64,000 nt of DNA, taken from IMG/VR virus record IMGVR_UViG_3300045988_005640. One strand, 5' to 3'. The stretch is from a virus (Duplodnaviria > Heunggongvirae > Uroviricota > Caudoviricetes). Position numbers and translations under genes: made by a program. Below the pieces are notes generated by a model. That model made no database searches and was not told the DNA's origin. It worked only from the letters and a program-made list of their open reading frames with translations. Below are positions 628 to 33,933 of this stretch, one piece after another; positions within the stretch are counted from its first letter, which is position 1; each line of letters begins with the position of its first letter.

Positions 628-2229
628 ATGGACTTAAATGCTGTTAAGCAGAAGCGAGTGGAAGATGTTAGGAAAGTCCTAGCTGGAGAGTTGGGGCTTT
701 CTGATGAAGTAAAAGAAATTATCAAATCATTCGGTAAAGACCCCTCTAAATTCCTTCCAACTCAAATTCTGACTTTATTAAGATACACACCAGACCAAGT
801 TAGACTTATCTTCAAATTGATGACTGATAAGAACTATGTAGCCCCTCAGCCGGGTTCTCAAGAGGTCTTTTTAAATACTAATGCTGACTTGGTTCTTTAT
901 GGTGGTGCTGCTGGTGCTGGTAAAACTGCTGCATTGTTAATGGACTCTCTAAGATTTATTGAAGACCCTAACTATAATGCTGTATATTTCCGTCGAAATA
1001 CAACACAGCTACAAGGTGGTTTATGGCCTGCTGCAAAGAAACTATTTGGTAAGTTTGGTGGGATTCCTCACGAGCAGAAAATGACTATCACATTCCCTTC
1101 TGGGGCAACTATCAAGTTTACCTACCTAGAACTTGAAAAGCACGCTGAAGGTCATCAGGGTATTGAATACTCAGCTATTTACTTTGACGAAGGTACACAC
1201 TTCTCTGCTTCACAGATTTCATACCTACAAACCCGTCTACGTTCTGGTGCTGAAGGCGATTCATACATGAAGATTTCCATGAACCCAGACAGAGACCACT
1301 TTATTTACGATTGGGTAGAGCCATTCTTAGATGAAGAAGGCTATCCAGACCCTGAAAAGTGTGGTCGTATTCGATGGTATGTAATGAATGATGGTGTGAT
1401 GGTTTCTGATTGGGAAAGGGATAAGATTCTTGAAATGTTCCCTCTTGAGATTCCTCAAACATACACATTCATCTCTGGTACGATTGATGATAACCCAATC
1501 CTTGACTTCTTAGAACCTAAGTACCGTGGTAAGTTGGAAAACAACACCCCTGTAAACGTTGCAAGACTTCGTTTCGGTAACTGGAAGGCTCGTGCAGAAG
1601 GTTCAAACTATTGGCAAAGACAGTGGTGTGAGATTGTTGATTCACTCCCAGAAGATGTATTTGATGTTAGAGCATGGGACTTAGCAGCAACTTTACCATC
1701 TGAGATTAACCCTAATCCAGACTGGACAGCAGGTGTTAAGATGGGTAAATCTAAAAAAGACGGTTGCTATTATATCATTGATGTAGTAAGATTTAGAGAT
1801 AGACCCTCTGGAGTCGAAACACAAATTAATTTGACTGCTGAAAGTGACGGTAAGCGAACTGGTATTTTTATCCCTCAAGACCCAGGCGCTGCTGGTAAAT
1901 CCTACGCAACATCCCTCATCAGGAAACTTGCCGAGAAAGGTTATCGTGCAAGAGCCAAACCAACAAATAAAGATAAAGTTACCCGATTTGCGGGGTTTTC
2001 TGCTGCTTCTGAAGCTGGACTTGTGAAAGTCTTGAGAGGTAGTTGGAACGAAGCTTACTTTCAAGAGCTTGAAGGCTTTTGTGGTGATGGCAAAACTAAA
2101 GATGACCAAGTGGATGCTACCAGTGATGCTTTCAACAGTCTTAACGAAGTTAAATTATTCAAGCCACCATCAATGGGTGCTCACACAGATTTAGTGAGAG
2201 GAAACCCATATGAGGGGCTTAGACGTTGA
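628..2229 (+). CDS. terL: Terminase large subunit
   Basis: Walker A P-loop LYGGAAGAGKTAAL near N-terminus; 533 aa; first large gene of the packaging/head module. ATG at 628 with GGAGG RBS preferred over ORF-track TTG at 613. Confidence 0.8.
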   Translation: MDLNAVKQKRVEDVRKVLAGELGLSDEVKEIIKSFGKDPSKFLPTQILTLLRYTPDQVRLIFKLMTDKNYVAPQPGSQEVFLNTNADLVLYGGAAGAGKTAALLMDSLRFIEDPNYNAVYFRRNTTQLQGGLWPAAKKLFGKFGGIPHEQKMTITFPSGATIKFTYLELEKHAEGHQGIEYSAIYFDEGTHFSASQISYLQTRLRSGAEGDSYMKISMNPDRDHFIYDWVEPFLDEEGYPDPEKCGRIRWYVMNDGVMVSDWERDKILEMFPLEIPQTYTFISGTIDDNPILDFLEPKYRGKLENNTPVNVARLRFGNWKARAEGSNYWQRQWCEIVDSLPEDVFDVRAWDLAATLPSEINPNPDWTAGVKMGKSKKDGCYYIIDVVRFRDRPSGVETQINLTAESDGKRTGIFIPQDPGAAGKSYATSLIRKLAEKGYRARAKPTNKDKVTRFAGFSAASEAGLVKVLRGSWNEAYFQELEGFCGDGKTKDDQVDATSDAFNSLNEVKLFKPPSMGAHTDLVRGNPYEGLRR

Positions 2230-2245
2230 TAGCTAGGTGAGAAGA

Positions 2246-3712
2246 ATGGCAGATATTACAGAAACACAAGAAAGCTTACCACCATTTAGAATGGGTGAAG
2301 TAGGTTCTTTGGGTCTGAAGGTTAAGAATGGAAGAATCTATGAAGAACCTCGTCAGGCACTAAGGTTCCCTGAAAGTATTAAAACTTTCCAATTAATGAT
2401 GCGTGACCCTGCTGTAGCAGCATCTGTAAATATTATTAAGATGTTTGTCAGAAAAGTCAACTGGAGATTCGTACCTCCAAAGGGAAAAGAGCAAGACCCT
2501 AAAATGCTTGAAAGAGCAGACTTCTTTAATTCTTTAATGGATGACATGGAGCATGATTGGGCAGATTTTATTAATTCTGTAATGTCATTCTGCACTTATG
2601 GGTTCTGTGTTAACGAGAAAGTTTATAAGAAGCGTCAGGGTAAAAAAGGAAAGTACCAGTCTAAATTTGATGATGGGCTAATTGGATGGGCTAAATTACC
2701 AATCAGAAACCAATCAACACTTGATAAGTGGTATTTTGACGAAGACTTTAGAAAAGTTACAGGTGTTAGGCAGAATCTGAGAAATGTTTCACATATTGCT
2801 GGAGCAATTAATCTCGGAGAAAGACCACTAACAAGAAAACTTCCACGAGCTAAATTCATGCTGTTCAAGTATGACGATGAATATGGAAATCCAGAAGGTC
2901 GTTCACCATTACTTAATGCTTATGTACCGTGGAAGTATAAAGTTCAGATTGAAGAGTATGAAGCTGTTGGTGTTTCAAGAGACTTGGTAGGTATGCCAAA
3001 GATTGGTTTGCCACCAGATTATCTTGATGAAAATGCAGAACCTGAAAAGAAAGCTTTCGTACAATACTGCAAGACTGTTGTTAATGATATGATTGCTAAC
3101 GACAGAGCAGGTTTAATCTGGCCTAGATATATTGACCCAGACACTAAAGAGGATATTTTTGAGTTCTCATTAGTTTCTAGACAGGGTGCTAAAGCATACG
3201 ATACAGGTTCTATTATTGACAGATATTCCAAGCAGATTATGATGGCATTTATGTCAGATGTTCTTGCTATGGGTCAGTCAAAATACGGTTCATTCTCTCT
3301 TGCAGATTCTAAGACAAGCTTACTAGCAATGTCAGTAGATATTCTGCTTAAGCAGATTAAGAACGTAATTAACCGTGATTTAGTTGCACAGACTTATGCT
3401 CTTAATATGTGGGATGATGAAGAACACGTACAAATTACATATGATGATATCGAAACTCCAGACCTTGAAGCAATTGGTTCTTATATTCAGAAAACTGTTG
3501 CAGTAGGTGCTTTGGAAGTTGACAAAGAACTATCTAACAAACTTAGAGAGCATATTGGTCTTCCTCCTGCTGATGAATCTCAGCCAGTATCTGAAAAGCT
3601 TTCTCCAAATAGTCAAAGCCGCTCAGGAGATGGTTATAAGACCGCTGGAGAAGGTACTGCAAAGACACCTTCAGCGAAAGACCCAAGCACAGCAAATAAG
3701 GCAAATAAATAA
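2246..3712 (+). CDS. Portal protein (by size and position)
   Basis: About 488-aa ORF immediately downstream of terminase; ATG at 2246 preferred over ORF-track GTG at 2237; no motif confirmed. Confidence 0.55.
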   Translation: MADITETQESLPPFRMGEVGSLGLKVKNGRIYEEPRQALRFPESIKTFQLMMRDPAVAASVNIIKMFVRKVNWRFVPPKGKEQDPKMLERADFFNSLMDDMEHDWADFINSVMSFCTYGFCVNEKVYKKRQGKKGKYQSKFDDGLIGWAKLPIRNQSTLDKWYFDEDFRKVTGVRQNLRNVSHIAGAINLGERPLTRKLPRAKFMLFKYDDEYGNPEGRSPLLNAYVPWKYKVQIEEYEAVGVSRDLVGMPKIGLPPDYLDENAEPEKKAFVQYCKTVVNDMIANDRAGLIWPRYIDPDTKEDIFEFSLVSRQGAKAYDTGSIIDRYSKQIMMAFMSDVLAMGQSKYGSFSLADSKTSLLAMSVDILLKQIKNVINRDLVAQTYALNMWDDEEHVQITYDDIETPDLEAIGSYIQKTVAVGALEVDKELSNKLREHIGLPPADESQPVSEKLSPNSQSRSGDGYKTAGEGTAKTPSAKDPSTANKANK

Positions 3713-24182: not shown

Positions 24183-24215
24183 AAGGCTCCTTTTTACGGG
24201 AGCCTTTTTTGTTTT
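24183..24215. terminator. Intrinsic terminator at convergent gene junction
   Basis: Stem aaggctcc/ggagcctt, then tttttt; sits between plus-strand gene end (24177) and minus-strand thyA end (24214). Confidence 0.6.
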
Positions 24216-25113
24216 ACTTGCCTACTGACAGAGGTGCTTCAATCTTCCCTGCATGTTGGTAGTTGTTAATGCCACCAATAAAATCACTTGCAGTAAGATG
24301 TTTTAAGTCACTTAAAGTGTTAAGCTGTACACCAATCTCAAAAGTAGGTGCATGGAACTCTTCATTGTTCATCAGTTCATAAACCTGCTTCATATGGTTC
24401 TGATAAATCTGAGTATCTCCAAAGACACCTATCAAGTATCGTGGAGTGTATCCAGTCATCTTACAAAGAACTTCCAGAATAAAACCATAAGATGCAATGT
24501 TAAACGGAAGTCCTAAAAATGTGTCTACAGAACGCTGATACCATTGCAAATCTACTTCACCTTCGTTGGTGATATAAATCTGAAACAGAACATGACAAGG
24601 TGCTAAAGCCATCGAGTTTGCTGCAATATCTGCTGCATTCCAAGCATTAACAAGCATGTAGCGGTCTGTGATATCACCTTTCATCTTTGTTACTAAGGTC
24701 TCTAACTGGTCTACAACACAACCATTATGACCTTCAAAGTTTCTCCACTGAACCCCGTAGATTCTCCCACCTGCATCTTCTAACCAATCTTGTTCAGAAG
24801 AATAATTAGAGCTTAACCAGCGTTTAAAATCATCTGACCAGATAGTCCAACGCTCCCCATCATTTTCACCCCAAGTACGATAACGGAGTTCACCAAGTTT
24901 ATTCTCACCATTCAGGAACCATAAAGCTTCCCCAATAACTTGCCGTGTAAACACCTGTTTAGATGTTAAGAGTGGAAAACCAGTACGCATATCAAAGCGA
25001 AACTGTGGTGGAGCAAATGCAGAGATAACATCTCCAGTTCGTGTAGTACGCAGTTCACCAACGGATAAAACATGGTTCAGGATATTTTTGTAACTCAAAT
25101 CAGCTTGTGACAT
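24214..25113 (-). CDS. thyA: Thymidylate synthase
   Basis: 299 aa; active-site region ALAPCHVLFQ (catalytic Cys in PCH), N-terminal RTGDVISAFAPPQFRFDM block typical of ThyA. Confidence 0.85.
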   Translation of the reverse strand: MSQADLSYKNILNHVLSVGELRTTRTGDVISAFAPPQFRFDMRTGFPLLTSKQVFTRQVIGEALWFLNGENKLGELRYRTWGENDGERWTIWSDDFKRWLSSNYSSEQDWLEDAGGRIYGVQWRNFEGHNGCVVDQLETLVTKMKGDITDRYMLVNAWNAADIAANSMALAPCHVLFQIYITNEGEVDLQWYQRSVDTFLGLPFNIASYGFILEVLCKMTGYTPRYLIGVFGDTQIYQNHMKQVYELMNNEEFHAPTFEIGVQLNTLSDLKHLTASDFIGGINNYQHAGKIEAPLSVGK

Positions 25114-25114
25114 A

Positions 25115-25660
25115 TCAAAAGTGTCCTTTTACTTGTGGAACATAGATTTCAAAGGTTGCTTTACCATCTACTGATGGTTTTGACTGAATCTTAGCGAAAA
25201 TTTGACGGTCATGCAACTTATCAAAGAAATTCTCAAAAGGTAGATGCACAGTTGCCTCTTCAGTAACTTCATGGAAAACTGTATGGAACACTACATCAGC
25301 ATACGGTAAAGCACTGACAAGAATACCTACACCACCAATTACGAAGACGTCTTCTTCAATATTACTATCAAGATACTTTAAAAATGCTCCAAAAGAATCT
25401 TGATGCGCCTTAGCAAACATAACATCATCTTTGGTGAAGTCCATACCATAATAAGGCACAGAATTTGTTAAGATGAGGTTTGTACGTTCTGGTAAAGGTT
25501 TACTACCCAGAGTCTTAAAAGTCTCATTACCCATGACTACTAAATTGTCTTTAGTGAGTCTCTTAAACTCTTGCATATCTTGTTTATGTCGAGGCCACGG
25601 CATACCAGTTGGAGTACCAAACTCCCCATTTTCACCACTTGCAAAGATTAATTTAATCAT
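25115..25660 (-). CDS. frd: Dihydrofolate reductase
   Basis: 181 aa; N-terminal IFASGENGEFG and VVMGNETFKTLG blocks typical of DHFR; adjacent to thyA. Confidence 0.7.
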   Translation of the reverse strand: MIKLIFASGENGEFGTPTGMPWPRHKQDMQEFKRLTKDNLVVMGNETFKTLGSKPLPERTNLILTNSVPYYGMDFTKDDVMFAKAHQDSFGAFLKYLDSNIEEDVFVIGGVGILVSALPYADVVFHTVFHEVTEEATVHLPFENFFDKLHDRQIFAKIQSKPSVDGKATFEIYVPQVKGHF

Positions 25661-25917
25661 TTTGTAAACCCTTTCTTAATGAACCAGTTGATAACATTCT
25701 TCACAGCTTTATTGCTATGGTAGATTAAGTGCGGTGTAGGTTGGTATGAACCATAAGCCCAGAAAGCAATGATTTCATTACATCCTGTACACCTTGTACT
25801 CTCTTCAGCAATATGACCGTTGACTATTTCACTTACCTCACCTTGTAAGTCTGTACACCCACAATGTGGACATCGGATAGGTGTTCCATCAGACTCATAG
25901 CAGTGTTCAATTTTCAT
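25657..25917 (-). CDS. Small zinc-ribbon protein
   Basis: 86 aa with CPHCGC...CTGCNE Cys pairs; ATGA overlap with frd. Confidence 0.35.
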   Translation of the reverse strand: MKIEHCYESDGTPIRCPHCGCTDLQGEVSEIVNGHIAEESTRCTGCNEIIAFWAYGSYQPTPHLIYHSNKAVKNVINWFIKKGFTK

Positions 25918-26433
25918 TTACTTAACCTCAAAAACTGGCTCAAGAACCAATATAAAGTCTACACAGTCATCTTCTTCATCCAGAATACCATCAAAGTTCT
26001 TAGGAACGAAGTCGAAGAGGCTCATCACAAAGCAGTCAGAAGTGACCTTGATAGTTCCTCCCATGTTCTCTACAGTTAACACTGTACGACTTTCTTTTAC
26101 CTCCCTCAGAAGATTACCCACAAAGTCATCTAAGAAGTACTTCATCAGTGACTTAAAACCTTTAGGATAATCTGTACCAGAGTATGTTTCAATCTGAGGC
26201 ACAAGCTTAACATTTATACTAGTCTTTGTTAAGAACGTGTTAGAGAACATACTATCAGGTAACTTACAAACACTCTTTCCAGTACCTTCATGTTCAATCT
26301 CAACAAAACCAGCTTCGTCGCCACATGTAACTATTTTAAAAGATGCTTCATTCTCATACTGTGAAGCCATAAACTTTTTAAGCATCTCTTTAAGGAAATC
26401 TGCATGAGCATCTTGTAAGTAGATATCAATCAT
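25918..26433 (-). CDS. Hypothetical protein
   Basis: 171-aa ORF, tightly packed in minus-strand operon. Confidence 0.3.
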   Translation of the reverse strand: MIDIYLQDAHADFLKEMLKKFMASQYENEASFKIVTCGDEAGFVEIEHEGTGKSVCKLPDSMFSNTFLTKTSINVKLVPQIETYSGTDYPKGFKSLMKYFLDDFVGNLLREVKESRTVLTVENMGGTIKVTSDCFVMSLFDFVPKNFDGILDEEDDCVDFILVLEPVFEVK

Positions 26434-26446
26434 AGTTAATCACCTA

Positions 26447-26806
26447 TTATGGGAACAAACACTTAATGTCATCGTTTTTGAAAACGAAACTTGTGTAGTT
26501 ATAACCATCAACATCCAACCAAACAGCCTGAACATCTACACCATCAAGATTCTGGTAAAGCTCTTTGATGAAGTGGTCTTTCACAATCTGGCTACTAGTG
26601 GTTTCCAGCTTGATGTTTGAGATTGCTGAACCTACAGCCATATAGCCCATGACACGTTTCTTCTCAGTGTGCTTAATCTTACCATCTTTGTAAGCCATAA
26701 TGAGATTGGAGAGAATCTTCACACCATAATACTTTTCAAGGTGAGTTGGTACGCCATAAAAGCCTAATGCGAAGTTTTCAGAGTGGATAATGTTTTCACG
26801 TTTCAT
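26447..26806 (-). CDS. Hypothetical protein
   Basis: 119-aa ORF directly downstream of HTH gene. Confidence 0.3.
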   Translation of the reverse strand: MKRENIIHSENFALGFYGVPTHLEKYYGVKILSNLIMAYKDGKIKHTEKKRVMGYMAVGSAISNIKLETTSSQIVKDHFIKELYQNLDGVDVQAVWLDVDGYNYTSFVFKNDDIKCLFP

Positions 26807-26807
26807 A

Positions 26808-27107
26808 TTAATCTGCCAACCTTAAATTGAAATTAACACCAAATTTTTCACATACTTCCAACATATACTCAAGGGAGACGTTACCAGTGAGATGGATTAT
26901 GTTGGATACACGAGCCTGAGAGATACCACAAATTTTAGCAACTTGCTCTTGAGAAAGACCTCTGGATTTAATCTCTCTCTTAAAACGATGTGCAACGAAG
27001 TCTCTCATTTCGTCTACATCCATTGGACAAATATAACTCTCCATTTCAGCCTCTCTATCAGCCTCCCAATCATCTTGTGGGGCATAAGGGTCAAAAACCT
27101 CATTCAT
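26808..27107 (-). CDS. HTH (XRE-like) DNA-binding protein
   Basis: C-terminal LSQEQVAKICGISQARVSNIIH helix-turn-helix; ATG at 27107 preferred over ORF-track TTG at 27137. Confidence 0.5.
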   Translation of the reverse strand: MNEVFDPYAPQDDWEADREAEMESYICPMDVDEMRDFVAHRFKREIKSRGLSQEQVAKICGISQARVSNIIHLTGNVSLEYMLEVCEKFGVNFNLRLAD

Positions 27108-27312
27108 CTTTCTTCTTCCGTTTGCGTGAAGTGTCAATCAATGAATCTATGTTTGTAGCCCTAACCTTTTCACGTTCATCATTAAGATAATCATCAAGAG
27201 CCTTTTCAATCTGTGAATCATCTTGACAGATAACTGTAAAGACTGTAAATCCGTCTGTATCGTCAATTATCTTACCATAACCGCTTCTGGGATGTAACTT
27301 TTTAAGAGCCAT
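27100..27312 (-). CDS. Hypothetical protein
   Basis: 70-aa ORF with Lys-rich C-terminus. Confidence 0.3.
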   Translation of the reverse strand: MALKKLHPRSGYGKIIDDTDGFTVFTVICQDDSQIEKALDDYLNDEREKVRATNIDSLIDTSRKRKKKDE

Positions 27313-27313
27313 A

Positions 27314-27697
27314 TTAGATACCTGTGCAGCTTCTGTTTTCTAAGAAATATTCAACACCGTACATAGATTTTTGCATCAAATCTTCTTTAAACTGGATACG
27401 ATGGTTGAGCATAGCCTGTACATCAATATCGTCATGGTGCTTCTCTTTAATATTTGCAGATTGCAGGAAATACTCTGCAAGAACGCGATACTGATAGTCA
27501 GTTACCTTATCAGTCATCTCTGTTAAAGACTCTTCAGAGATTGGTTTAAGTAGTTCACCATTAGATAGAGCAACACCTTTTACAATCTGGCAAGTGTCTT
27601 CTGGAACACCTGATAAGTCCACATTTGGAAGTTCTGTTGCATTGACTGGTAAATTCATTGCCATAACCATTGCAGCAGCTAATAAAATCTTTTTCAT
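27314..27697 (-). CDS. Secreted/periplasmic protein with signal peptide
   Basis: N-terminal MKKILLAAAMVMAMNLPVNA signal-peptide-like segment; GAGG RBS upstream. Confidence 0.45.
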   Translation of the reverse strand: MKKILLAAAMVMAMNLPVNATELPNVDLSGVPEDTCQIVKGVALSNGELLKPISEESLTEMTDKVTDYQYRVLAEYFLQSANIKEKHHDDIDVQAMLNHRIQFKEDLMQKSMYGVEYFLENRSCTGI

Positions 27698-27741
27698 AAT
27701 GACCTCAAAGTTATATTAAATTTTGTATTACGTTGAGTATA

Positions 27742-27770
27742 AAAATAAGCTATAACACCTGACTTGTCAA
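27742..27770 (-). promoter_or_regulatory. Candidate minus-strand promoter TTGACA-N17-TATTTT inside a hairpin loop
   Basis: Reverse complement of 27765-27770 is ttgaca; -10-like tatttt at 27742-27747 on minus strand; sits within 12-bp inverted repeat. Confidence 0.35.
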
Positions 27771-27789
27771 CAGATTTTATAGCTTATTT
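27743..27789. repeat. Perfect 12-bp inverted repeat aaataagctata / tatagcttattt with 23-nt loop
   Basis: Arms at 27743-27754 and 27778-27789. Confidence 0.8.
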
Positions 27790-27876
27790 GGCAGATTTTT
27801 TATAAGGCTACTGCCATCCTTCCATACCAGACCACACCATGCAAAACCAGACTTCACATCACCTTACCGTGCAATA

Positions 27877-27914
27877 CATCACTTAAAACCCTCTTAGAAG
27901 ACTCTTAAGTGATG
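27877..27914. repeat. 10-bp inverted repeat catcacttaa / ttaagtgatg with 18-nt loop
   Basis: Arms at 27877-27886 and 27905-27914; no flanking U-tract. Confidence 0.75.
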
Positions 27915-27916
27915 CT

Positions 27917-27956
27917 GGTGAGTACCCGTTGGTTTATGCTGCTCAGTATACTCACC
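27917..27956. repeat. 8-bp inverted repeat ggtgagta / tactcacc with 24-nt loop
   Basis: Arms at 27917-27924 and 27949-27956. Confidence 0.7.
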
Positions 27957-28156
27957 AAATTTTCTATGTCAACAACTTTCTAATAAAGTTTTATGAAGAT
28001 TTTGCTTAACAACCCGCCTCACATGCCTGTGCTCTTTCTTAATAAAGAGTGACCTCTTCTTGATAGAGCGCCTATTCTTGTAAGTGTTGCTAGGGTACTT
28101 ATCATGAACCGGACAACAACTACCCGTATTTGTAAACTTGATAATCTCTCTTTTCA

Positions 28157-29260
28157 CTATTCATAATCCCTAATAACTAGCCCGACAGGGAACTGTAAAG
28201 AACCCTTACGAGTCATCTTCTGGAACTGTACTGTTAAAGGCTTCCCGATAAACTCATCAGGATGCTCAGCAAGATACTGTTTCTTCTCATGAGTAGTCTT
28301 CCATGAGACATCTACAAAGACGTTAGGAAGAGTCTCTACAACGAACTTGCCATGACCACGTTTATCAGTCTTTACACCAGTCACTTTAAACTCTTCAGTG
28401 TGCATCTTCTTGTGCTTAATCAAGAAGTATGAACGGTGACAACACTCATAGAAGGAGTCTTCAGAGATTGAACGGTACATTGCGCCTTCAAACTTAGCTT
28501 CAACCCACTTATCATGAGCTTCATCAAACTCTTCCCAAGAGTTAACACGACGAGATTTAACAGGGACAACTTTACAGCCATCTCTAAAGTCATTCAATGG
28601 TGAAGTCTCAATAATATCTCTACGCTCAGGCCACGTCTTAGTACTATCACAGATATCGTACCAGTAAAACTTGAGTAGATGTCGGTCAGGATTGTCTTCA
28701 TTTTTAATCATAGAGACAATATCTTCTAAGTCCAACCCATGAGCATAAATCTCACCATCAAACTCATCAACATCTTTGTGGAGCCTTAGCATTGCCATAA
28801 TGTCAGGTATTAGCTCAGTAGGTATTTTATAAACAGTATTCTCACGAGAGTATGCTGTAAATACACTACCGATGCTCAAGTGTCTTGAAATTCTACAACG
28901 GACACCATCAAGTTTTGGTTGAGCATCAGCAGGGAACTTCAAATACTTTGCATGGCTAACCTTTGCAGCATCATGAGCAAGCTGTACACCCACCTTCTCA
29001 GTATTCTGTGCAGACTCTTTTGTGTAAGCATAACCTTTGCGGTCAACCTGCTTTTTATACTTTGCAGCAACTTCAAAGAGAGCTTGCTGTTCAGCGTTAC
29101 GCTCATTCTTTTTACCGATGTTTTTAGGTTCTGCTGTATACTCTTCAAACATCATCTTGCCATTTTCTTTGCCATACGTGGTAACAACTTTGTCACCTAC
29201 AGCGACACATGACCAGACATTAAAAGAACCATCTTTATTTTGTTTGTATAGAATTGTCAT
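28157..29260 (-). CDS. ATP-dependent DNA ligase
   Basis: 367 aa; nucleotidyltransferase motif I KLDGVR, motif III FDGEIY, motif IV EGAMYR, motif V FLIKHK. Confidence 0.6.
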   Translation of the reverse strand: MTILYKQNKDGSFNVWSCVAVGDKVVTTYGKENGKMMFEEYTAEPKNIGKKNERNAEQQALFEVAAKYKKQVDRKGYAYTKESAQNTEKVGVQLAHDAAKVSHAKYLKFPADAQPKLDGVRCRISRHLSIGSVFTAYSRENTVYKIPTELIPDIMAMLRLHKDVDEFDGEIYAHGLDLEDIVSMIKNEDNPDRHLLKFYWYDICDSTKTWPERRDIIETSPLNDFRDGCKVVPVKSRRVNSWEEFDEAHDKWVEAKFEGAMYRSISEDSFYECCHRSYFLIKHKKMHTEEFKVTGVKTDKRGHGKFVVETLPNVFVDVSWKTTHEKKQYLAEHPDEFIGKPLTVQFQKMTRKGSLQFPVGLVIRDYE

Positions 29261-29265
29261 TCAAA

Positions 29266-29823
29266 TTACCTTAGCATGTGTGATTTTACTGGAATAAAGA
29301 TACCAAATTGTGAGACTGCTAAACCAGATAGTGACATACACTGTTCAGGTAAGTACACAAAAACCCCTGTGTAGAAGTCTATAAAAGAACCATCATCTTG
29401 TTTGCAGGCTAGTTTTCCATAACCATAGTTGTACAACTTTAATGAACCATCATCATACTTTAAGTAGTTCTTGAACTGAACATTAAAAGCATATTCAGAG
29501 AACCTTGTGTACAGGTCATAAAGCAATCCAATACTGTCGTCGACTATTGCTACACCAAACTTTTTACAAATATCTACATAGTTTTTGTATAATTTATTAT
29601 GATTTTCAGGTGTTGCAAAGTTTGTATACCAATGTTCTAAGATAGATAACTTAATTGGCTGATTTTTAGAATATTCTAATACCTTTATGTCATACCAAGA
29701 TTTCCTAAGTCTGACATCATCTAGCCTTAAATTTTGAGACACTTCGCGGAAGTTTTTGATGATTATATTTCTGCGCCTATTGTCAATCATAATCAATCCT
29801 CTGAGTGATACCAAGTGTTGCAA
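29266..29823 (-). CDS. Hypothetical protein
   Basis: 185-aa ORF. Confidence 0.3.
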   Translation of the reverse strand: MQHLVSLRGLIMIDNRRRNIIIKNFREVSQNLRLDDVRLRKSWYDIKVLEYSKNQPIKLSILEHWYTNFATPENHNKLYKNYVDICKKFGVAIVDDSIGLLYDLYTRFSEYAFNVQFKNYLKYDDGSLKLYNYGYGKLACKQDDGSFIDFYTGVFVYLPEQCMSLSGLAVSQFGIFIPVKSHMLR

Positions 29824-29984
29824 GCATTACATGCGTAAAGCTCTAAGTCATTTTTATCTGGTTTATGAAAACAGTTCGCTCCGCAGTGACAACGAAATGG
29901 TTTTCCACCAACTGTCAGAATGAAGGATTGAACCTTTCCATCAGGAGTTCGTACAGCATTTTTATGCTTGTCTTCTTTATTCAT
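29793..29984 (-). CDS. Small zinc-ribbon protein
   Basis: 63 aa with CHCGANC...CNACN Cys pairs. Confidence 0.3.
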   Translation of the reverse strand: MNKEDKHKNAVRTPDGKVQSFILTVGGKPFRCHCGANCFHKPDKNDLELYACNACNTWYHSED

Positions 29985-30140
29985 TTGTGCTATTGCCTTT
30001 GTCAGATTTCATATAGGACATGTTACTACACCTTTTAATAAAATGTACAACGCATTTTGGTGTATCCTTTGCGTCTTTGATGTGCAATCTCTCGAAACTG
30101 TGTACTGTGAAGGTTGCATCTGTCATTGTTTGCTTAGGTT

Positions 30141-30347
30141 TCATTTTCTCTTACCACCAATCTCTACGTCAATAACTTGAACATCACCAGCAACATCAAA
30201 CTTATGAATGATGCTTTCCACAGTGTAAGTCAAACCCTCAATGCGAACCAATTCACCTTCTCGTGGGACGATTGGGTTACGTTGAGCTACAGTTGTAGTG
30301 GAGTGAACAACATCATAACAATAGATATAGTTTACTAGGACTTCCAT
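30141..30347 (-). CDS. Hypothetical protein
   Basis: ORF track gives 30141..30446; ATG at 30347 with GAGG RBS avoids overlap with lipoprotein gene, giving 68 aa. Confidence 0.3.
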   Translation of the reverse strand: MEVLVNYIYCYDVVHSTTTVAQRNPIVPREGELVRIEGLTYTVESIIHKFDVAGDVQVIDVEIGGKRK

Positions 30348-30357
30348 CGTGAAAACC

Positions 30358-30615
30358 TCACTCAATAACCGTAGTATGTGATTGTCCATTTTTGCCATAG
30401 CTGTAAGATGTTGTTGTTTGAGAGTTTGGACATCTGACAACAACAATATCTCTGCTTATAGCATCACCATGTAACTTGTATACTCTGCAATCTTGCATCT
30501 CTGGTGGGAGGCTATAAGAAGCATTTTTATCTTCATAAGAAGGGTTGCAGCCAGATAGAAAAATTACTCCAAGTGCAACCATTGCTTTCACACAACTCTC
30601 AACCTTATTGTTCAC
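30358..30615 (-). CDS. Lipoprotein (lipobox LSGC)
   Basis: N-terminal MNNKVESCVKAMVALGVIFLSGC with positively charged n-region, hydrophobic core and lipobox Cys; GTG start with GAGAGG RBS. Confidence 0.45.
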   Translation of the reverse strand: MNNKVESCVKAMVALGVIFLSGCNPSYEDKNASYSLPPEMQDCRVYKLHGDAISRDIVVVRCPNSQTTTSYSYGKNGQSHTTVIE

Positions 30616-30747
30616 GATAGTCTACCTCTCTGTATGTTTTTAAATAGTGAGTGATGAGTTCTGGTAATTCACTACGTTTAACGTTTGAACGAAGAAGTGT
30701 CCAGTCAAAACCTTTACCAACCCTTCCCCAGAGACTGTACATTTTCT

Positions 30748-30981
30748 TCATAGCAACTCCAGAATATCAATACGTTCACCTTTGAGTACTCCAGTACGGT
30801 CTTTTGCAATCTTACCTTCAACAATAAGAATGTGTGCAGACCTTAAAGTGTCACTGTTAAAGGTTTTTACGAACTTGCTAGGCATCACTACAATACACAT
30901 CTCCTGAATCAACTCTGGAGTATAGCAGTTGTCGTGAAGTTGCTGAATAACGTCTGCAAGTGTCATTTTTGATGTCTCCAA
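30748..30981 (-). CDS. Hypothetical protein
   Basis: 77-aa ORF. Confidence 0.3.
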   Translation of the reverse strand: METSKMTLADVIQQLHDNCYTPELIQEMCIVVMPSKFVKTFNSDTLRSAHILIVEGKIAKDRTGVLKGERIDILELL

Positions 30982-31172
30982 TACTCAATGTCAATAAGTT
31001 CTTGTGCAATGCTTTTCAGATTACCTTTCAAGAAAACCTTCTCAGAACCTGAAAGAGATGAGTTGTCAATTAACCTGTTCATTCTCTCAAACAACTTCTG
31101 CTTACGATTTTTGATAGTCTCCTTTGAAGCACCTTTCATCATCGCTGCATGGGTTCTTCCACGATGGCTCAT
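30963..31172 (-). CDS. Hypothetical basic protein
   Basis: 69-aa ORF rich in Lys/Arg. Confidence 0.3.
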   Translation of the reverse strand: MSHRGRTHAAMMKGASKETIKNRKQKLFERMNRLIDNSSLSGSEKVFLKGNLKSIAQELIDIEYWRHQK

Positions 31173-31233
31173 AAGCCCTCCTATATAAGATACAGTATAA
31201 GGTACTCTTCCATGAGCACCTTGTCAATACTAA

Positions 31234-33933
31234 TTAGTGAACCTCAAGCCAGCTTTTACCAACCTTACCAGTACCTGTAACAAGTGTTTCTTTCTTAAGA
31301 CCTAAGTTCTTAGAAGCTTGTCCATAATACCAGTCAGTAACCGCTTTCACCTCTGCCGTCATGCTTTCTGGACATTCCCAACTCGTCTCATCGTGATATG
31401 CGCAGAGTAAACGAGCACCAATAGCTGGTTTGCGACCATTCAACTTCATCAAGCCTTCGTCAATCATACGACGACAAGCAAGGTTAATCGCCTCATTTTG
31501 AATCTGAGCCTCTGAACCCATCAAAAGATAGTTCAATAATTTGTGTGGAGATTTACACCACAACCAAGCTCCAGCAACCTTTACAAAACCCCCTTTAGAG
31601 ATTGCAGCGGTCTTACCAAACACCTCTTCAAGTGCCTTTTTAGTTGCTTTGTAGTCAGCTTCCAAGTCATCTAACAGCTTCTTAATTTTAGGCAAACGTA
31701 TAAAGTAAGTTTGTTTAGTCAGTGCACCTTCCTGAGTAGTTGCAGCTTTAATCGTCTTAGCAAACTTCTCATCCCCTGCACCGAACAGCAGTGCATAGAT
31801 ACCATTCTTAGCTTTCTTACGACCCTTACTAATCTCATGGAGAAGATTCTCATCCTGAGTAGCTCGACAAGTCAAGATATCCTGCTCATCATTCAAGCTA
31901 AAGTAAATACTGTTCAGTGTATGTGCATCAGTCCCTGAATAGACAACGTACAGGTCATTCTCAGAGTCATAACGAAGGTACTTATCAATCTCTGGGTTTA
32001 GGTACTCATCAAAGTGTTTGCAGTAATAGCGTCCATCTTCTTGACGAATGAACTCAATTTCTTCTTTACCTTGCGTTACCGCTTTGGTGAAGTCTTTATC
32101 ACCCATAAAGTTACAAAGAAGAACTAGCTGGGCTGAGTTCATATCTACAGAGACAACGTTAGTACCTTCCTCACAAATCCACACTGCCCTCATTGGTTCC
32201 CCATAGACAGCAGCACCAGACGGTACGTTTACAATACCATATTGTGTCATACGTCCAGTTGAAGTACCAAACACCATTGCACCAGCACTAAGGCGACCAT
32301 CAGGACGAATCTGGTTCAACCAACCTTTTTCATCATCCTTTGAGTTCTCAATAGTTCTGCGTCGGTGCATCAAAGTATAGTACTTAGCAATCTTCTGTCC
32401 AAGTTCACCTTCAATCGTATCATAAGATGATTCAGTAAGTTTTGGTGAAGTACGGATTAAGCAAGGCTCAAGTAAATCTGTGTATTTCTTCACAGACCAG
32501 TTATGCTCAATGTACTGGACACCTTCATGCTCAACATAGCTCAAACCACACCGCTCAACCATTTCCTGCCACTTAGGATGTTTTGTAATCATCTTTTTAT
32601 TGTCTTTGAAACGACAAACTTTGACAGGGCGACCGTCTGAGTCTTTCTTGTAGTTCCAGTCATCTGGAATCCAACCAACTGATTTCAAGTAGTCTTTAAC
32701 AACTGCTACCTGAGTCATACGAGAAACTTCAAACTCAATTGGTGTATATGGTGCATCAATCAAACCTGTGTAGCGACTTGACTCAAGTTCAAAGTGGTTA
32801 ACAACGTGGCTGTTATAGTACTTCACAGTTTTGACTGTTTTTACTGGCTTCCAGTCTTTGCACTTCTTACCAATCTTTGCATTCAACTCATTGCAAATTG
32901 CACGAGCATCCCTCATTGCTACAAAACCTTCCTTGTACTCTTCACCAGTTACAGAATTGGTTGGTGTATAGCAATTCCTTTTTTCAATGTTAAAAATCTT
33001 TGTAGTTGGCTTACCAAATGGCTTGATTTCGTATGTCTGCATCTCACCGTTACGCACCTGTTGACGGTACTTCGTCTTAGGGTACTTGGTAATTCTCTTC
33101 AACCCATCTGCATGACCAAATGTTTCAACATACTCATTCCAAGCCTTTGCAAACTCTTCACCAGTTACTTTACCTTTGGTCTTAATAGTTGGAGGTAGAT
33201 GTGGTTCAACCTCTGAAGCAAGCTCATTAGTCAACTTGTCAAGTTCCTTTACATGGAACTCCATAAGTTCTTTATCAGCTTTCCAACCATTGATAGCTTG
33301 CTGGCTCATCCAGAAAGATGTTTCTTTAGCTCGCATGTAGGTTTCATAAGTATCTATGCCACACTTCTTAAGCTTGAGATACTCATTATCAAGTGCCCGT
33401 TTAGTTTTGGCGTTAATACGGATATCTTCTACAACACGAGTGAAGATTTCTGCATTCCACACACCCCAATGTTCAATCTCTGGTTTACGAACACCAACAC
33501 GAGCACCCCATGCAGCCAAACCATGAGCACCTTTATAACCCTTTGGAGTTGGTCTATCCATCCACTGAACACGAGACTGGATAAGAGAATCCTGAAAGAA
33601 ATTACTCCACGGTTTACACTTTGGGTTATCAAAGTTCCATAAATCAGGTGCAATGTGATTGAAAACCCACCAGTCATAACCGAGACCGTTATGGATGCAA
33701 AGACGTTTTGCCTTTAACGCAAACTCAATACCTTCACGTAAGCCACCCTTAATATACTTGGTATACTTGTGACCGAGGATAGGCTCATCTGTAAAGACCC
33801 ATACAGGTGGCTCTTCATCGTCAGATTTATAGTCTGCGAAAGCCATTACGTGCACTTTAGTGAACTCAAGGAGTAAACCATCAGTTTCTGTATCACCAAC
33901 TAAATGTAAGTTTTTAAAATCTACGTTTTCCAT
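31234..33933 (-). CDS. DNA polymerase, family A, with 3-prime to 5-prime exonuclease domain
   Basis: 899 aa; N-terminal exo I motif VGDTETDGL; polymerase motif B-like KNGIYALLFGAG and motif C YHDE; GAGGGAG RBS. Confidence 0.8.
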   Translation of the reverse strand: MENVDFKNLHLVGDTETDGLLLEFTKVHVMAFADYKSDDEEPPVWVFTDEPILGHKYTKYIKGGLREGIEFALKAKRLCIHNGLGYDWWVFNHIAPDLWNFDNPKCKPWSNFFQDSLIQSRVQWMDRPTPKGYKGAHGLAAWGARVGVRKPEIEHWGVWNAEIFTRVVEDIRINAKTKRALDNEYLKLKKCGIDTYETYMRAKETSFWMSQQAINGWKADKELMEFHVKELDKLTNELASEVEPHLPPTIKTKGKVTGEEFAKAWNEYVETFGHADGLKRITKYPKTKYRQQVRNGEMQTYEIKPFGKPTTKIFNIEKRNCYTPTNSVTGEEYKEGFVAMRDARAICNELNAKIGKKCKDWKPVKTVKTVKYYNSHVVNHFELESSRYTGLIDAPYTPIEFEVSRMTQVAVVKDYLKSVGWIPDDWNYKKDSDGRPVKVCRFKDNKKMITKHPKWQEMVERCGLSYVEHEGVQYIEHNWSVKKYTDLLEPCLIRTSPKLTESSYDTIEGELGQKIAKYYTLMHRRRTIENSKDDEKGWLNQIRPDGRLSAGAMVFGTSTGRMTQYGIVNVPSGAAVYGEPMRAVWICEEGTNVVSVDMNSAQLVLLCNFMGDKDFTKAVTQGKEEIEFIRQEDGRYYCKHFDEYLNPEIDKYLRYDSENDLYVVYSGTDAHTLNSIYFSLNDEQDILTCRATQDENLLHEISKGRKKAKNGIYALLFGAGDEKFAKTIKAATTQEGALTKQTYFIRLPKIKKLLDDLEADYKATKKALEEVFGKTAAISKGGFVKVAGAWLWCKSPHKLLNYLLMGSEAQIQNEAINLACRRMIDEGLMKLNGRKPAIGARLLCAYHDETSWECPESMTAEVKAVTDWYYGQASKNLGLKKETLVTGTGKVGKSWLEVH

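Follow-up and report, generated by a model that had tools for sequence, protein, structure and literature searches.

A predicted solitary vrRNA gene in a Felix O1-type phage with a guide matching the vipr gene of related phages

The DNA analysed here, designated below as the window, is a 64,000-nucleotide stretch of the IMG/VR virus record IMGVR_UViG_3300045988_005640 (Caudoviricetes). Its source phage is a Felix O1-type Felixounavirus, a myovirus. The interval 27698–27968, located between two minus strand genes, is assigned from its sequence features as a solitary gene for the guide RNA (vrRNA) of a type II VIPR (Viral Interference Programmable Repeat) system, read from the minus strand. The guide that it encodes matches a stretch of vipr, the gene of the VIPR protein Vipr, as found in related phages.

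Organization of the locus

The locus lies inside the minus strand early/replication gene block (24214–33933). It is bounded downstream by a homologue of Felix O1 open reading frame (ORF) 87 and upstream by an ORF of 62 amino acids adjoining the DNA ligase gene. When 1.1 kb of sequence surrounding the locus was used as query, 248 GenBank phage records matched with 90–99% identity. Alignment of the relatives shows a hypervariable segment between the repeats with flanks that are invariant across three genera; no change is seen at positions 27718–27826 in Felixounavirus, Suspvirus or Mooglevirus, in contrast to the beginning of the adjacent coding sequence, which differs. The features of the locus are the following, in the order in which they would be transcribed, with the two neighbouring ORFs at the end (N, any base; R, purine; Y, pyrimidine).

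27945–27972, minus strand: predicted sigma-70-type promoter of the vrRNA gene; -35 hexamer TTGACA at 27972–27967, 16-nt spacer, -10 hexamer TATACT at 27950–27945; 11/12 match to consensus.
27916–27957, minus strand: inverted repeat "B3" with 9-bp arms, overlapping the -10 hexamer and the transcript start; -15.3 kcal/mol, z -3.5.
27877–27915, minus strand: 5' hairpin "A1", directly upstream of the repeats in the RNA; -20.2 kcal/mol, z -5.95.
27824–27878, minus strand: vrRNA repeat tract of 11 in-register pentamers, GGYNN or YNNGG in the RNA and NNRCC on the plus strand.
27790–27823, minus strand: 3' tail of the vrRNA, a predicted H-type pseudoknot, GGAAGGAUGGCAGUAGCCUUAUAAAAAAUCUGCC, with stems AAGG/CCUU and GGCAG/CUGCC.
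27735–27789, minus strand: terminator-like hairpin built on a 12-bp repeat (19-nt arms 27743–27761/27771–27789) and followed by UUUUUAUAC on the minus strand.
27742–27770, minus strand: promoter-like site of the downstream gene; TTGACA at 27770–27765 in the hairpin loop, 17 nt, TATTTT at 27747–27742; 10/12 match to consensus.
27314–27697, minus strand: Felix O1 ORF87 homologue, the downstream gene; 127 amino acids, signal-peptide-like amino terminus, no Pfam family; context, outside the RNA gene.
27969–28157, minus strand: basic ORF of 62 amino acids, situated after the ligase gene and before the vrRNA promoter; without Pfam family; context.

The initial annotation had described three inverted repeats in this interval, perfect over 12 bp (27743–27754/27778–27789), perfect over 10 bp (27877–27886/27905–27914) and of 8 bp (27917–27924/27949–27956), with a TTGACA hexamer on the minus strand in the loop of the first. 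All of them are present, as is the hexamer. The first repeat extends to the 19-nt arms listed above, which are 89% complementary, and the third to 9 bp (27916–27924/27949–27957), while the second corresponds to the outer stem of A1, whose RNA-sense stem reaches ~14 bp through G·U pairs. Folding of the minus strand RNA gives hairpins that outperform shuffled sequences (0/200 as good for each of the three). The assertion that none of the repeats is followed by a U-tract does not hold on the minus strand, which is the gene sense, since the 12-bp repeat runs there into a U-run. The stretch was also said to be gene-free, which holds only if the 62-aa ORF is real. Felix O1 lacks this ORF, and its gap extends to the ligase gene.

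Both 27972–27945 and 27770–27742 are predicted sigma-70 promoters by their sequence. The first has its -35 hexamer overlapping the stop codon of the 62-aa ORF, and its sequence is the same as that found upstream of vrRNA1 of Escherichia phage SUSP1. The second occupies the same place in phages dune and SUSP1, and the annotation of phage AYO145A marks it as a promoter. The promoter of the next gene is plausibly contained in the loop and 3' arm of the AU-rich hairpin, in agreement with the promoter-like element that had been noticed there. Transcription of the vrRNA would end at the same hairpin, which is invariant across Felixounavirus, Suspvirus and Mooglevirus and more stable on the minus strand (-17.8 kcal/mol, z -5.1) than on the plus strand (-14.1 kcal/mol). 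Note that a consensus terminator scan did not call this 12-bp hairpin, whose AU-rich stem has too few G-C pairs.

The hairpins and the tail belong to families shared with other arrays. In 30+ arrays each vrRNA unit is preceded by a hairpin of type A (A1 or A2). The consensus fold derived from 12 variants includes four G·U pairs that would be A·C mismatches on the plus strand. In L009 (Moogle) and in L017/L029, the A1 copy belonging to the middle module has its loop extended by a ~22-nt insertion, ATGAGATACTCT(T/A)TCGAATATAATT, with both stem arms kept, indicating that A1 tolerates a large loop expansion. B3 is related to, and has diverged from, the pseudoknot-tail hairpins B1/B2, with which it aligns in relatives; it is identical in SUSP1. 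Covariation in the tail pseudoknot is strong: across 20 distinct tails, 96.8% of the cells pair and 9 of the 11 pairs change on both sides, none of 500 shuffles being as good and slid controls reaching at most 36%.

No Rfam match was obtained in 27698–27968 even at E <= 10, and a tRNA scan of the window found tRNAs only at 11–183 and none in the locus. The plus strand sequence GCTGGTGA at 27914–27921, at the A1/B3 junction, matches E. coli Chi (GCTGGTGG) in 7 of 8 positions, which is probably coincidental. The 62-aa ORF codes for a very basic, Cys-containing polypeptide and begins with a GTG that overlaps the stop codon of ligase. SUSP1 has it at the same place, and phage skuden has there an unrelated sequence of similar length; the position looks like a small-gene cassette of variable content, lodged between ligase and the vrRNA promoter. 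The GC skew flips sign exactly over the minus strand block 24214–33933, which extends from thymidylate synthase to DNA polymerase. The skew tracks the direction of transcription, with no sign of a replication origin.

The pentamer repeat and its assignment to VIPR

The variable segment of the relatives reads on the plus strand as NNRCC repeated 10–16 times in a strict 5-nt lattice, and tract lengths differ across the family in steps of five. The pentamer logo, compiled from 655 pentamers of 53 distinct tracts, has free positions 1 and 2, followed by A (84%) or G (11%) at position 3, C (97%) at position 4 and C (80%) at position 5. One to three modules, each formed by a type A hairpin, a pentamer tract and a type B hairpin, are found in relatives in an array adjoining the ORF87 homologue. 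The tract at 27824–27878 is unique in the window, with 10 of 14 units in phase as compared to a background maximum of 7. G2 and Y of the GGY motif are intact in 11/11 units of the window tract and G1 in 6/11 (four units are UGY, one is AGY). The tail-proximal unit at 27824–27828 (AU, from an invariant ATACC) is constant in all alleles and is not part of the guide, which consists of the ten variable dinucleotides at 27829–27878: AU AC AA GA GA CU UU AU GU CU.

When IMG/VR was scanned for seven ACC triplets in phase, more than 120 loci were returned, with a chance expectation well under one. Many of them are heterogeneous tracts in long punctuated arrays of unrelated viral contigs. Clustering of the flanking ORFs revealed that one family of ~200-aa proteins adjoins the arrays in 30 of 55 loci, and in 36 of 55 with a hidden Markov model (HMM). 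Its gene is nearly always on the strand where the array reads GGYNN. The protein (~195 aa) is phrog_4652, whose function is not annotated, and has no Pfam match. The Ounavirinae member of the family matches PDB entry 36pp, "SUSP1 Vipr protein", with E = 6e-128.

VIPR is an RNA-guided DNA-silencing system proposed to pre-date CRISPR (bioRxiv 10.64898/2026.04.26.720920, 10.64898/2026.04.26.720927). The vrRNA is defined by 9–16 YNNGG repeats and a pseudoknotted tail of ~40 nt. The RAMP protein Vipr polymerises along the repeats as a filament that grips each GGY, and the NN dinucleotides pair with double-stranded DNA, on either strand, every third target base being skipped (10.64898/2026.04.26.720920, 10.64898/2026.04.26.720927). 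The outcome is transcriptional silencing, which serves phage-phage conflicts. SUSP1 has one vrRNA upstream of vipr-vap and three downstream, its vrRNA1 was detected by small-RNA sequencing, and 18 of the 20 guides of the SUSP1 clade target a satellite phage (10.64898/2026.04.26.720920, 10.64898/2026.04.26.720927).

The 11 units of the window tract fall within the 9–16 repeats of the vrRNA definition, with a regularity at the low end, and the segment 27790–27823 is the same as the terminal tail of SUSP1, with the pseudoknot covariation reported above. The unique lattice, the co-occurring Vipr, the SUSP1-identical ends and the tail covariation together support the assignment of the region as a vrRNA gene. 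A small or structured RNA had been one of the options of the initial annotation, and it is the one retained: the inverted repeats are accessory parts of a predicted guide-RNA gene, whose pentamer array and link to a known system had been missed. Nothing was found in support of the further options, operators for the nearby helix-turn-helix (HTH) protein and replication or recombination signals, and the RNA gene now accounts for the features.

The SUSP1 locus, a VIPR locus of type II in which vap is named vap1, is organized in the order ligase, 62-aa ORF, promoter with B3 and A1, vrRNA1, vipr, vap and a GC-rich terminator, after which come three vrRNAs, the terminal tail, the AU-rich hairpin and the ORF87 homologue. 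Both loci thus have the ligase gene on one side and the ORF87 homologue on the other. The promoter/B3/A1 leader of the window is identical to that of SUSP1 with one base missing from a T-run, and the terminal pseudoknot tail, the terminator-like hairpin and the downstream promoter are identical as well. The window differs in having neither vipr nor vap and in carrying one vrRNA instead of four or more; it corresponds to the SUSP1 locus minus everything between two A1 copies. A further difference is that 5 of its 11 GGY motifs are without G1, though the terminal vrRNA of SUSP1 has the same regularity (6/11).

Other candidates for the lattice were dropped once the co-occurring protein had been identified as Vipr. 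One was an origin of replication, with an R-loop or a G-quadruplex formed by the GGT strand; the GC skew follows only the orientation of the genes. The others were T7-gp4-like primase sites in a cluster, a rut site for Rho on the plus strand, a CsrA or ribosome sponge, and a TRAP-like ring-protein site. As to the last, the triplet is GGY, and neither TRAP (PF02081) nor another RNA-binding Pfam family was found in the neighbouring ORFs. The literature on the Felix O1 replication origin or transcriptome yielded nothing relevant. TRAP sites are composed of 9–11 (G/U)AG triplets separated by 2–3-nt spacers. They share with the window tract a fixed triplet and a free 2-nt spacer repeated ~11 times and read by a protein oligomer along single-stranded RNA. 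The difference is that the binder in the VIPR system is a RAMP filament and that the free dinucleotides carry the targeting information rather than serving as spacers.

Very long heterogeneous NNACC arrays were observed in the unrelated viral contigs L152 (~1550–2750, minus strand), L077 (1230–2430), L067 (4600–5050), L074, L066 and L086 of IMG/VR. They are punctuated by contig-specific motifs, namely AACTGCC in L152 (~20 tracts in 1.2 kb), AAATTAAATTCATTAAACCATTCC in L077 and CATTAGCC in L067. A Vipr-like gene is directly adjacent in most of these loci, and the arrays presumably belong to other VIPR types. Heterogeneous pentamer tracts were also found in L091, L098, L118, L161 and L165, where the HMM detected no Vipr-like ORF and at least 3 kb are available on both sides. 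These are further candidate orphan vrRNAs outside Ounavirinae, their tracts being short and some of them possibly due to chance or microsatellite-like.

The guide target and the absence of vipr

Under the published skip rule the guide reads ATxACxAAxGAxGAxCTxTTxATxGTxCT. It matches ATT ACC AAA GAA GAA CTC TTG ATG GTT CT, which are codons 157–166 of vipr (ITKEELLMVL) in SUSP1, wV8 and Moogle. The target is entered in the feature list as follows.

vipr codons 157–166 in vipr-carrying relatives: target stretch for the guide, ATTACCAAAGAAGAACTCTTGATGGTTCT.

The match covers 10/10 variable units, or 10/11 when all units are counted. As in SUSP1, the code is YNNGG and the target obeys the 1-nt skip, the skipped base falling at the wobble position of each codon. 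This site is the best guide match in the whole 90.7-kb SUSP1 genome, where 100 permuted guides reach at most 8. An exact 10-unit scan of 2.9 million IMG/VR contigs gave 8 matches, all in Ounavirinae vipr genes, in frame and with differing wobble bases. The same scan of 596 Gb of GTDB representative genomes gave 0 matches, and no self-target with a match of at least 8/11 was found in the window or in Felix O1. Earlier target scans of the window, IMG/VR and GTDB had been run with all 11 dinucleotides and returned nothing; the vipr matches came with the 10-unit pattern. An exact 12-unit scan of IMG/VR with SUSP1 vrRNA1, used as control, also found nothing, so that negatives of exact scans mean little, the published satellite targets being themselves unreachable in this way. 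The window guide differs from those of the SUSP1 clade, which mostly target satellite phage, in being directed to vipr itself.

The window and Felix O1 alleles of the guide have a single dinucleotide difference, UU/CU, that matches the TTG/CTG variants of the Leu163 codon. Among 20 distinct vipr alleles, 7 are perfect targets for one guide and 7 for the other, while the remaining 6 carry K159R, L162I or L163I. Eleven residues of Vipr vary in the 20 Ounavirinae alleles and three of them are inside the 10-codon site (~0.6 expected). Two other orphan alleles also have their best genome-wide match in vipr: JH2 matches 9/10 units across the start codon, on the other strand, and L012 (IMG/VR) matches 8/9 units at codons 13–21. 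The guides of vipr-carrying phages and of two-unit orphan arrays gave only background matches. Vipr is nearly invariant in L175–L192 and L223 (SUSP1 vipr, 28474–29061); its residue 18 (N/A) is found in the L012 target site.

No Vipr or Vap (dune Vap is phrog_5926) was found in the window by tblastn. A Vipr HMM built from 132 sequences, which detects SUSP1 Vipr as positive control with E = 5e-82, found none in the six frames of the window nor in the complete Felix O1 genome (best E ~0.7), ~22 kb of the source phage lying outside the window. In IMG/VR, vipr is present in 0/8 of the near-complete genomes with a ligase-adjacent array and in all genomes with a vipr-adjacent array. The gene is carried by ~118 of the ~250 GenBank Ounavirinae records, from which it follows that about half of the group has orphan arrays. 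The window allele occurs in ~80 GenBank records at >=95% identity, and at least five different tract alleles share the same orphan frame. A metagenome scan found no further copies of the window allele; with a shorter anchor it gave 14 loci, of which 11 are Ounavirinae arrays, one of these being of the orphan type. The number of vrRNAs upstream of vipr varies in L175–L192 (~1050–1500), where many phages have two or more units as compared to one in SUSP1, and the last unit before vipr has a distinct tail type, GGGUGGAUGGUAGUAGCCACGUUAAAAAUCUACC.

Possible role in conflicts between phages

The locus is probably an orphan vrRNA gene whose guide matches the vipr of a rival phage and is loaded onto the rival's Vipr to shut the rival operon. 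The consensus host-type promoter at 27972–27945 would drive synthesis of an RNA formed by the 5' hairpin, the 11 GGYNN repeats, the pseudoknot tail and the AU-rich terminator-like hairpin. This RNA would be made early from that promoter; in SUSP1 an identical leader drives an expressed vrRNA. When a vipr-carrying relative co-infects or superinfects the same cell, the orphan guide, present in abundance, would be taken up by the rival's Vipr, directing it onto the rival's own vipr gene and leading to shutdown of vipr and vap, to the benefit of the orphan-carrying phage. A more elaborate proposal, possible though somewhat doubtful, is that phages of the Felix O1 type, with the classical typing phage of Salmonella among them, dropped the VIPR protein genes and kept a promoter-driven solitary guide against vipr. 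It would be a natural RNA-only anti-VIPR device, which hijacks the Vipr of a co-infecting rival to silence the VIPR operon of that rival, and would be engaged in an arms race. The tracking of the Leu-codon variants by the guide alleles and the concentration of K159R, L162I and L163I in the target site of a protein otherwise nearly invariant might be signs of such an arms race.

Several observations weigh against a guide that acts through a borrowed Vipr. Five of the 11 GGY motifs of the window are UGY or AGY, and GGY>AGY substitutions were reported to abolish silencing (10.64898/2026.04.26.720920, 10.64898/2026.04.26.720927). This objection is tempered by the SUSP1 terminal vrRNA, which is expressed and equally imperfect. 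Guides from vipr-carrying phages aimed at the window or at Felix O1 gave background matches only, so that the benefit of disarming the VIPR of a rival is not evident. The orphan alleles NJ12 and L010 have no significant match in SUSP1. The co-variation of guide and target and the enrichment of substitutions are suggestive and rest on small numbers, and both could also be explained if each orphan derived from the vipr of its own ancestor.

The main alternative, a rather unlikely one, is that the locus is a relic. An ancestor carrying vipr would have acquired a guide against this very gene, self-silencing would have deprived the system of its use, and vrRNA1, vipr and vap would have been lost, along with the inner vrRNAs, by recombination between the two A1 copies. 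The leftover guide would then be decaying and without function, and would have been kept only as it is short and stands beside the terminator and promoter needed by the next gene. The correspondence of the window to a SUSP1 locus deleted between two A1 copies would be accounted for by such recombination. Decay would also fit the low number of intact GGY motifs (6/11), the lower regularity of single-unit orphan arrays, with 59% intact as compared to 82% in vipr-adjacent ones, the presence of 4 of the 8 polymorphic sites of the allele family at the G1 position and the lack of guides found to be aimed at Felix O1-type genomes; the first and last of these count at the same time among the difficulties of an anti-VIPR function. 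The intact 11/12 promoter, 5' hairpin and tail, identical in the ~80 genomes that carry the window allele, speak by contrast against decay. The same holds for the G2 and Y positions, which are untouched, and for the guide, which still matches 10/10 units and whose sole dinucleotide polymorphism tracks the target variant. Furthermore, three of the tract alleles that share the orphan frame match three different vipr sites. A look for relaxed selection in the allele family was based on 10 sequences with 8 variable sites, too few to decide.

It is very unlikely that the region holds only ordinary transcription signals, namely a terminator for upstream genes, the promoter of the ORF87 homologue and perhaps operators for the HTH_3 protein encoded at 26808–27137, with no RNA product. 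The terminator-like hairpin with its U-run, the promoter-like hexamers and the vicinity of the HTH_3 gene would be accommodated in this way, but this reading would not explain why the lattice keeps strictly to 5 nt, why the pseudoknot covaries, why the region is identical to an experimentally detected vrRNA locus or why the code matches vipr exactly, and no palindromic operator in common with other promoters came to light. Hardly credible is an element acting at the DNA level or a site for some other multimeric binder (replication origin, TRAP-like site, Rho/CsrA sponge): the period-5 triplet lattice resembles TRAP sites, the C-rich and G-poor plus strand resembles a rut site and the locus is within the replication gene block of a phage that encodes a T7 gp4-like primase-helicase, but these ideas are superseded by Vipr as the co-occurring protein, with solved complexes, no TRAP or other RNA-binding family is found among the neighbours and the GC skew follows only the direction of transcription.

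A guide directed against the VIPR of a competitor has precedents. [quoted passage not shown] These cases are alike in showing guides against VIPR loci and competitor-directed vrRNAs; they differ in that VIPR-targeting guides were reported for the P. fulva prophage clade and the loci were defined by carrying Vipr. The VIPR preprints, in the parts that were available, describe no lytic phage lineage that is vipr-less and has a sole anti-vipr guide, and they hold no mention of Felix O1, of vipr-less phages or of solitary anti-vipr guides. The type of element is thus already known from the 2026 preprints, while the match of a solitary guide in vipr-less phages to vipr is new here.

Mobile elements that carry only the RNA component of a system and exploit or jam the effector of another are represented by virus-borne mini-CRISPR arrays, orphan CRISPR arrays and solitary-repeat RNA anti-CRISPRs. 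The likeness to the window locus, RNA part only and engagement in virus-virus conflict, is a functional analogy only. Mini-CRISPR and orphan arrays are made of CRISPR repeats and spacers with contiguous pairing, and no CRISPR repeat is found in the window.

If the guide does act on the Vipr of a rival, this would be the first natural anti-VIPR mechanism, purely RNA-based, the two VIPR preprints reporting neither counter-measures nor protein-less lytic carriers. Felix O1-like phages are widely used in typing and biocontrol, and about half of those sequenced would then take part in VIPR conflicts without encoding an effector. The locus also provides a ready guide/target pair from nature, with natural escape alleles, for the study of VIPR targeting rules, such as the tolerance of UGY/AGY repeats. 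Even as a relic it documents the loss of a VIPR locus through leader-hairpin recombination after self-targeting.

Among the GenBank records with Felix O1-like sequence that includes the locus, two are labelled Staphylococcus phage SA1 and Campylobacter phage A132. The SA1 record also holds a 99.5% identical vipr. Both records look like mislabelled or chimeric entries.

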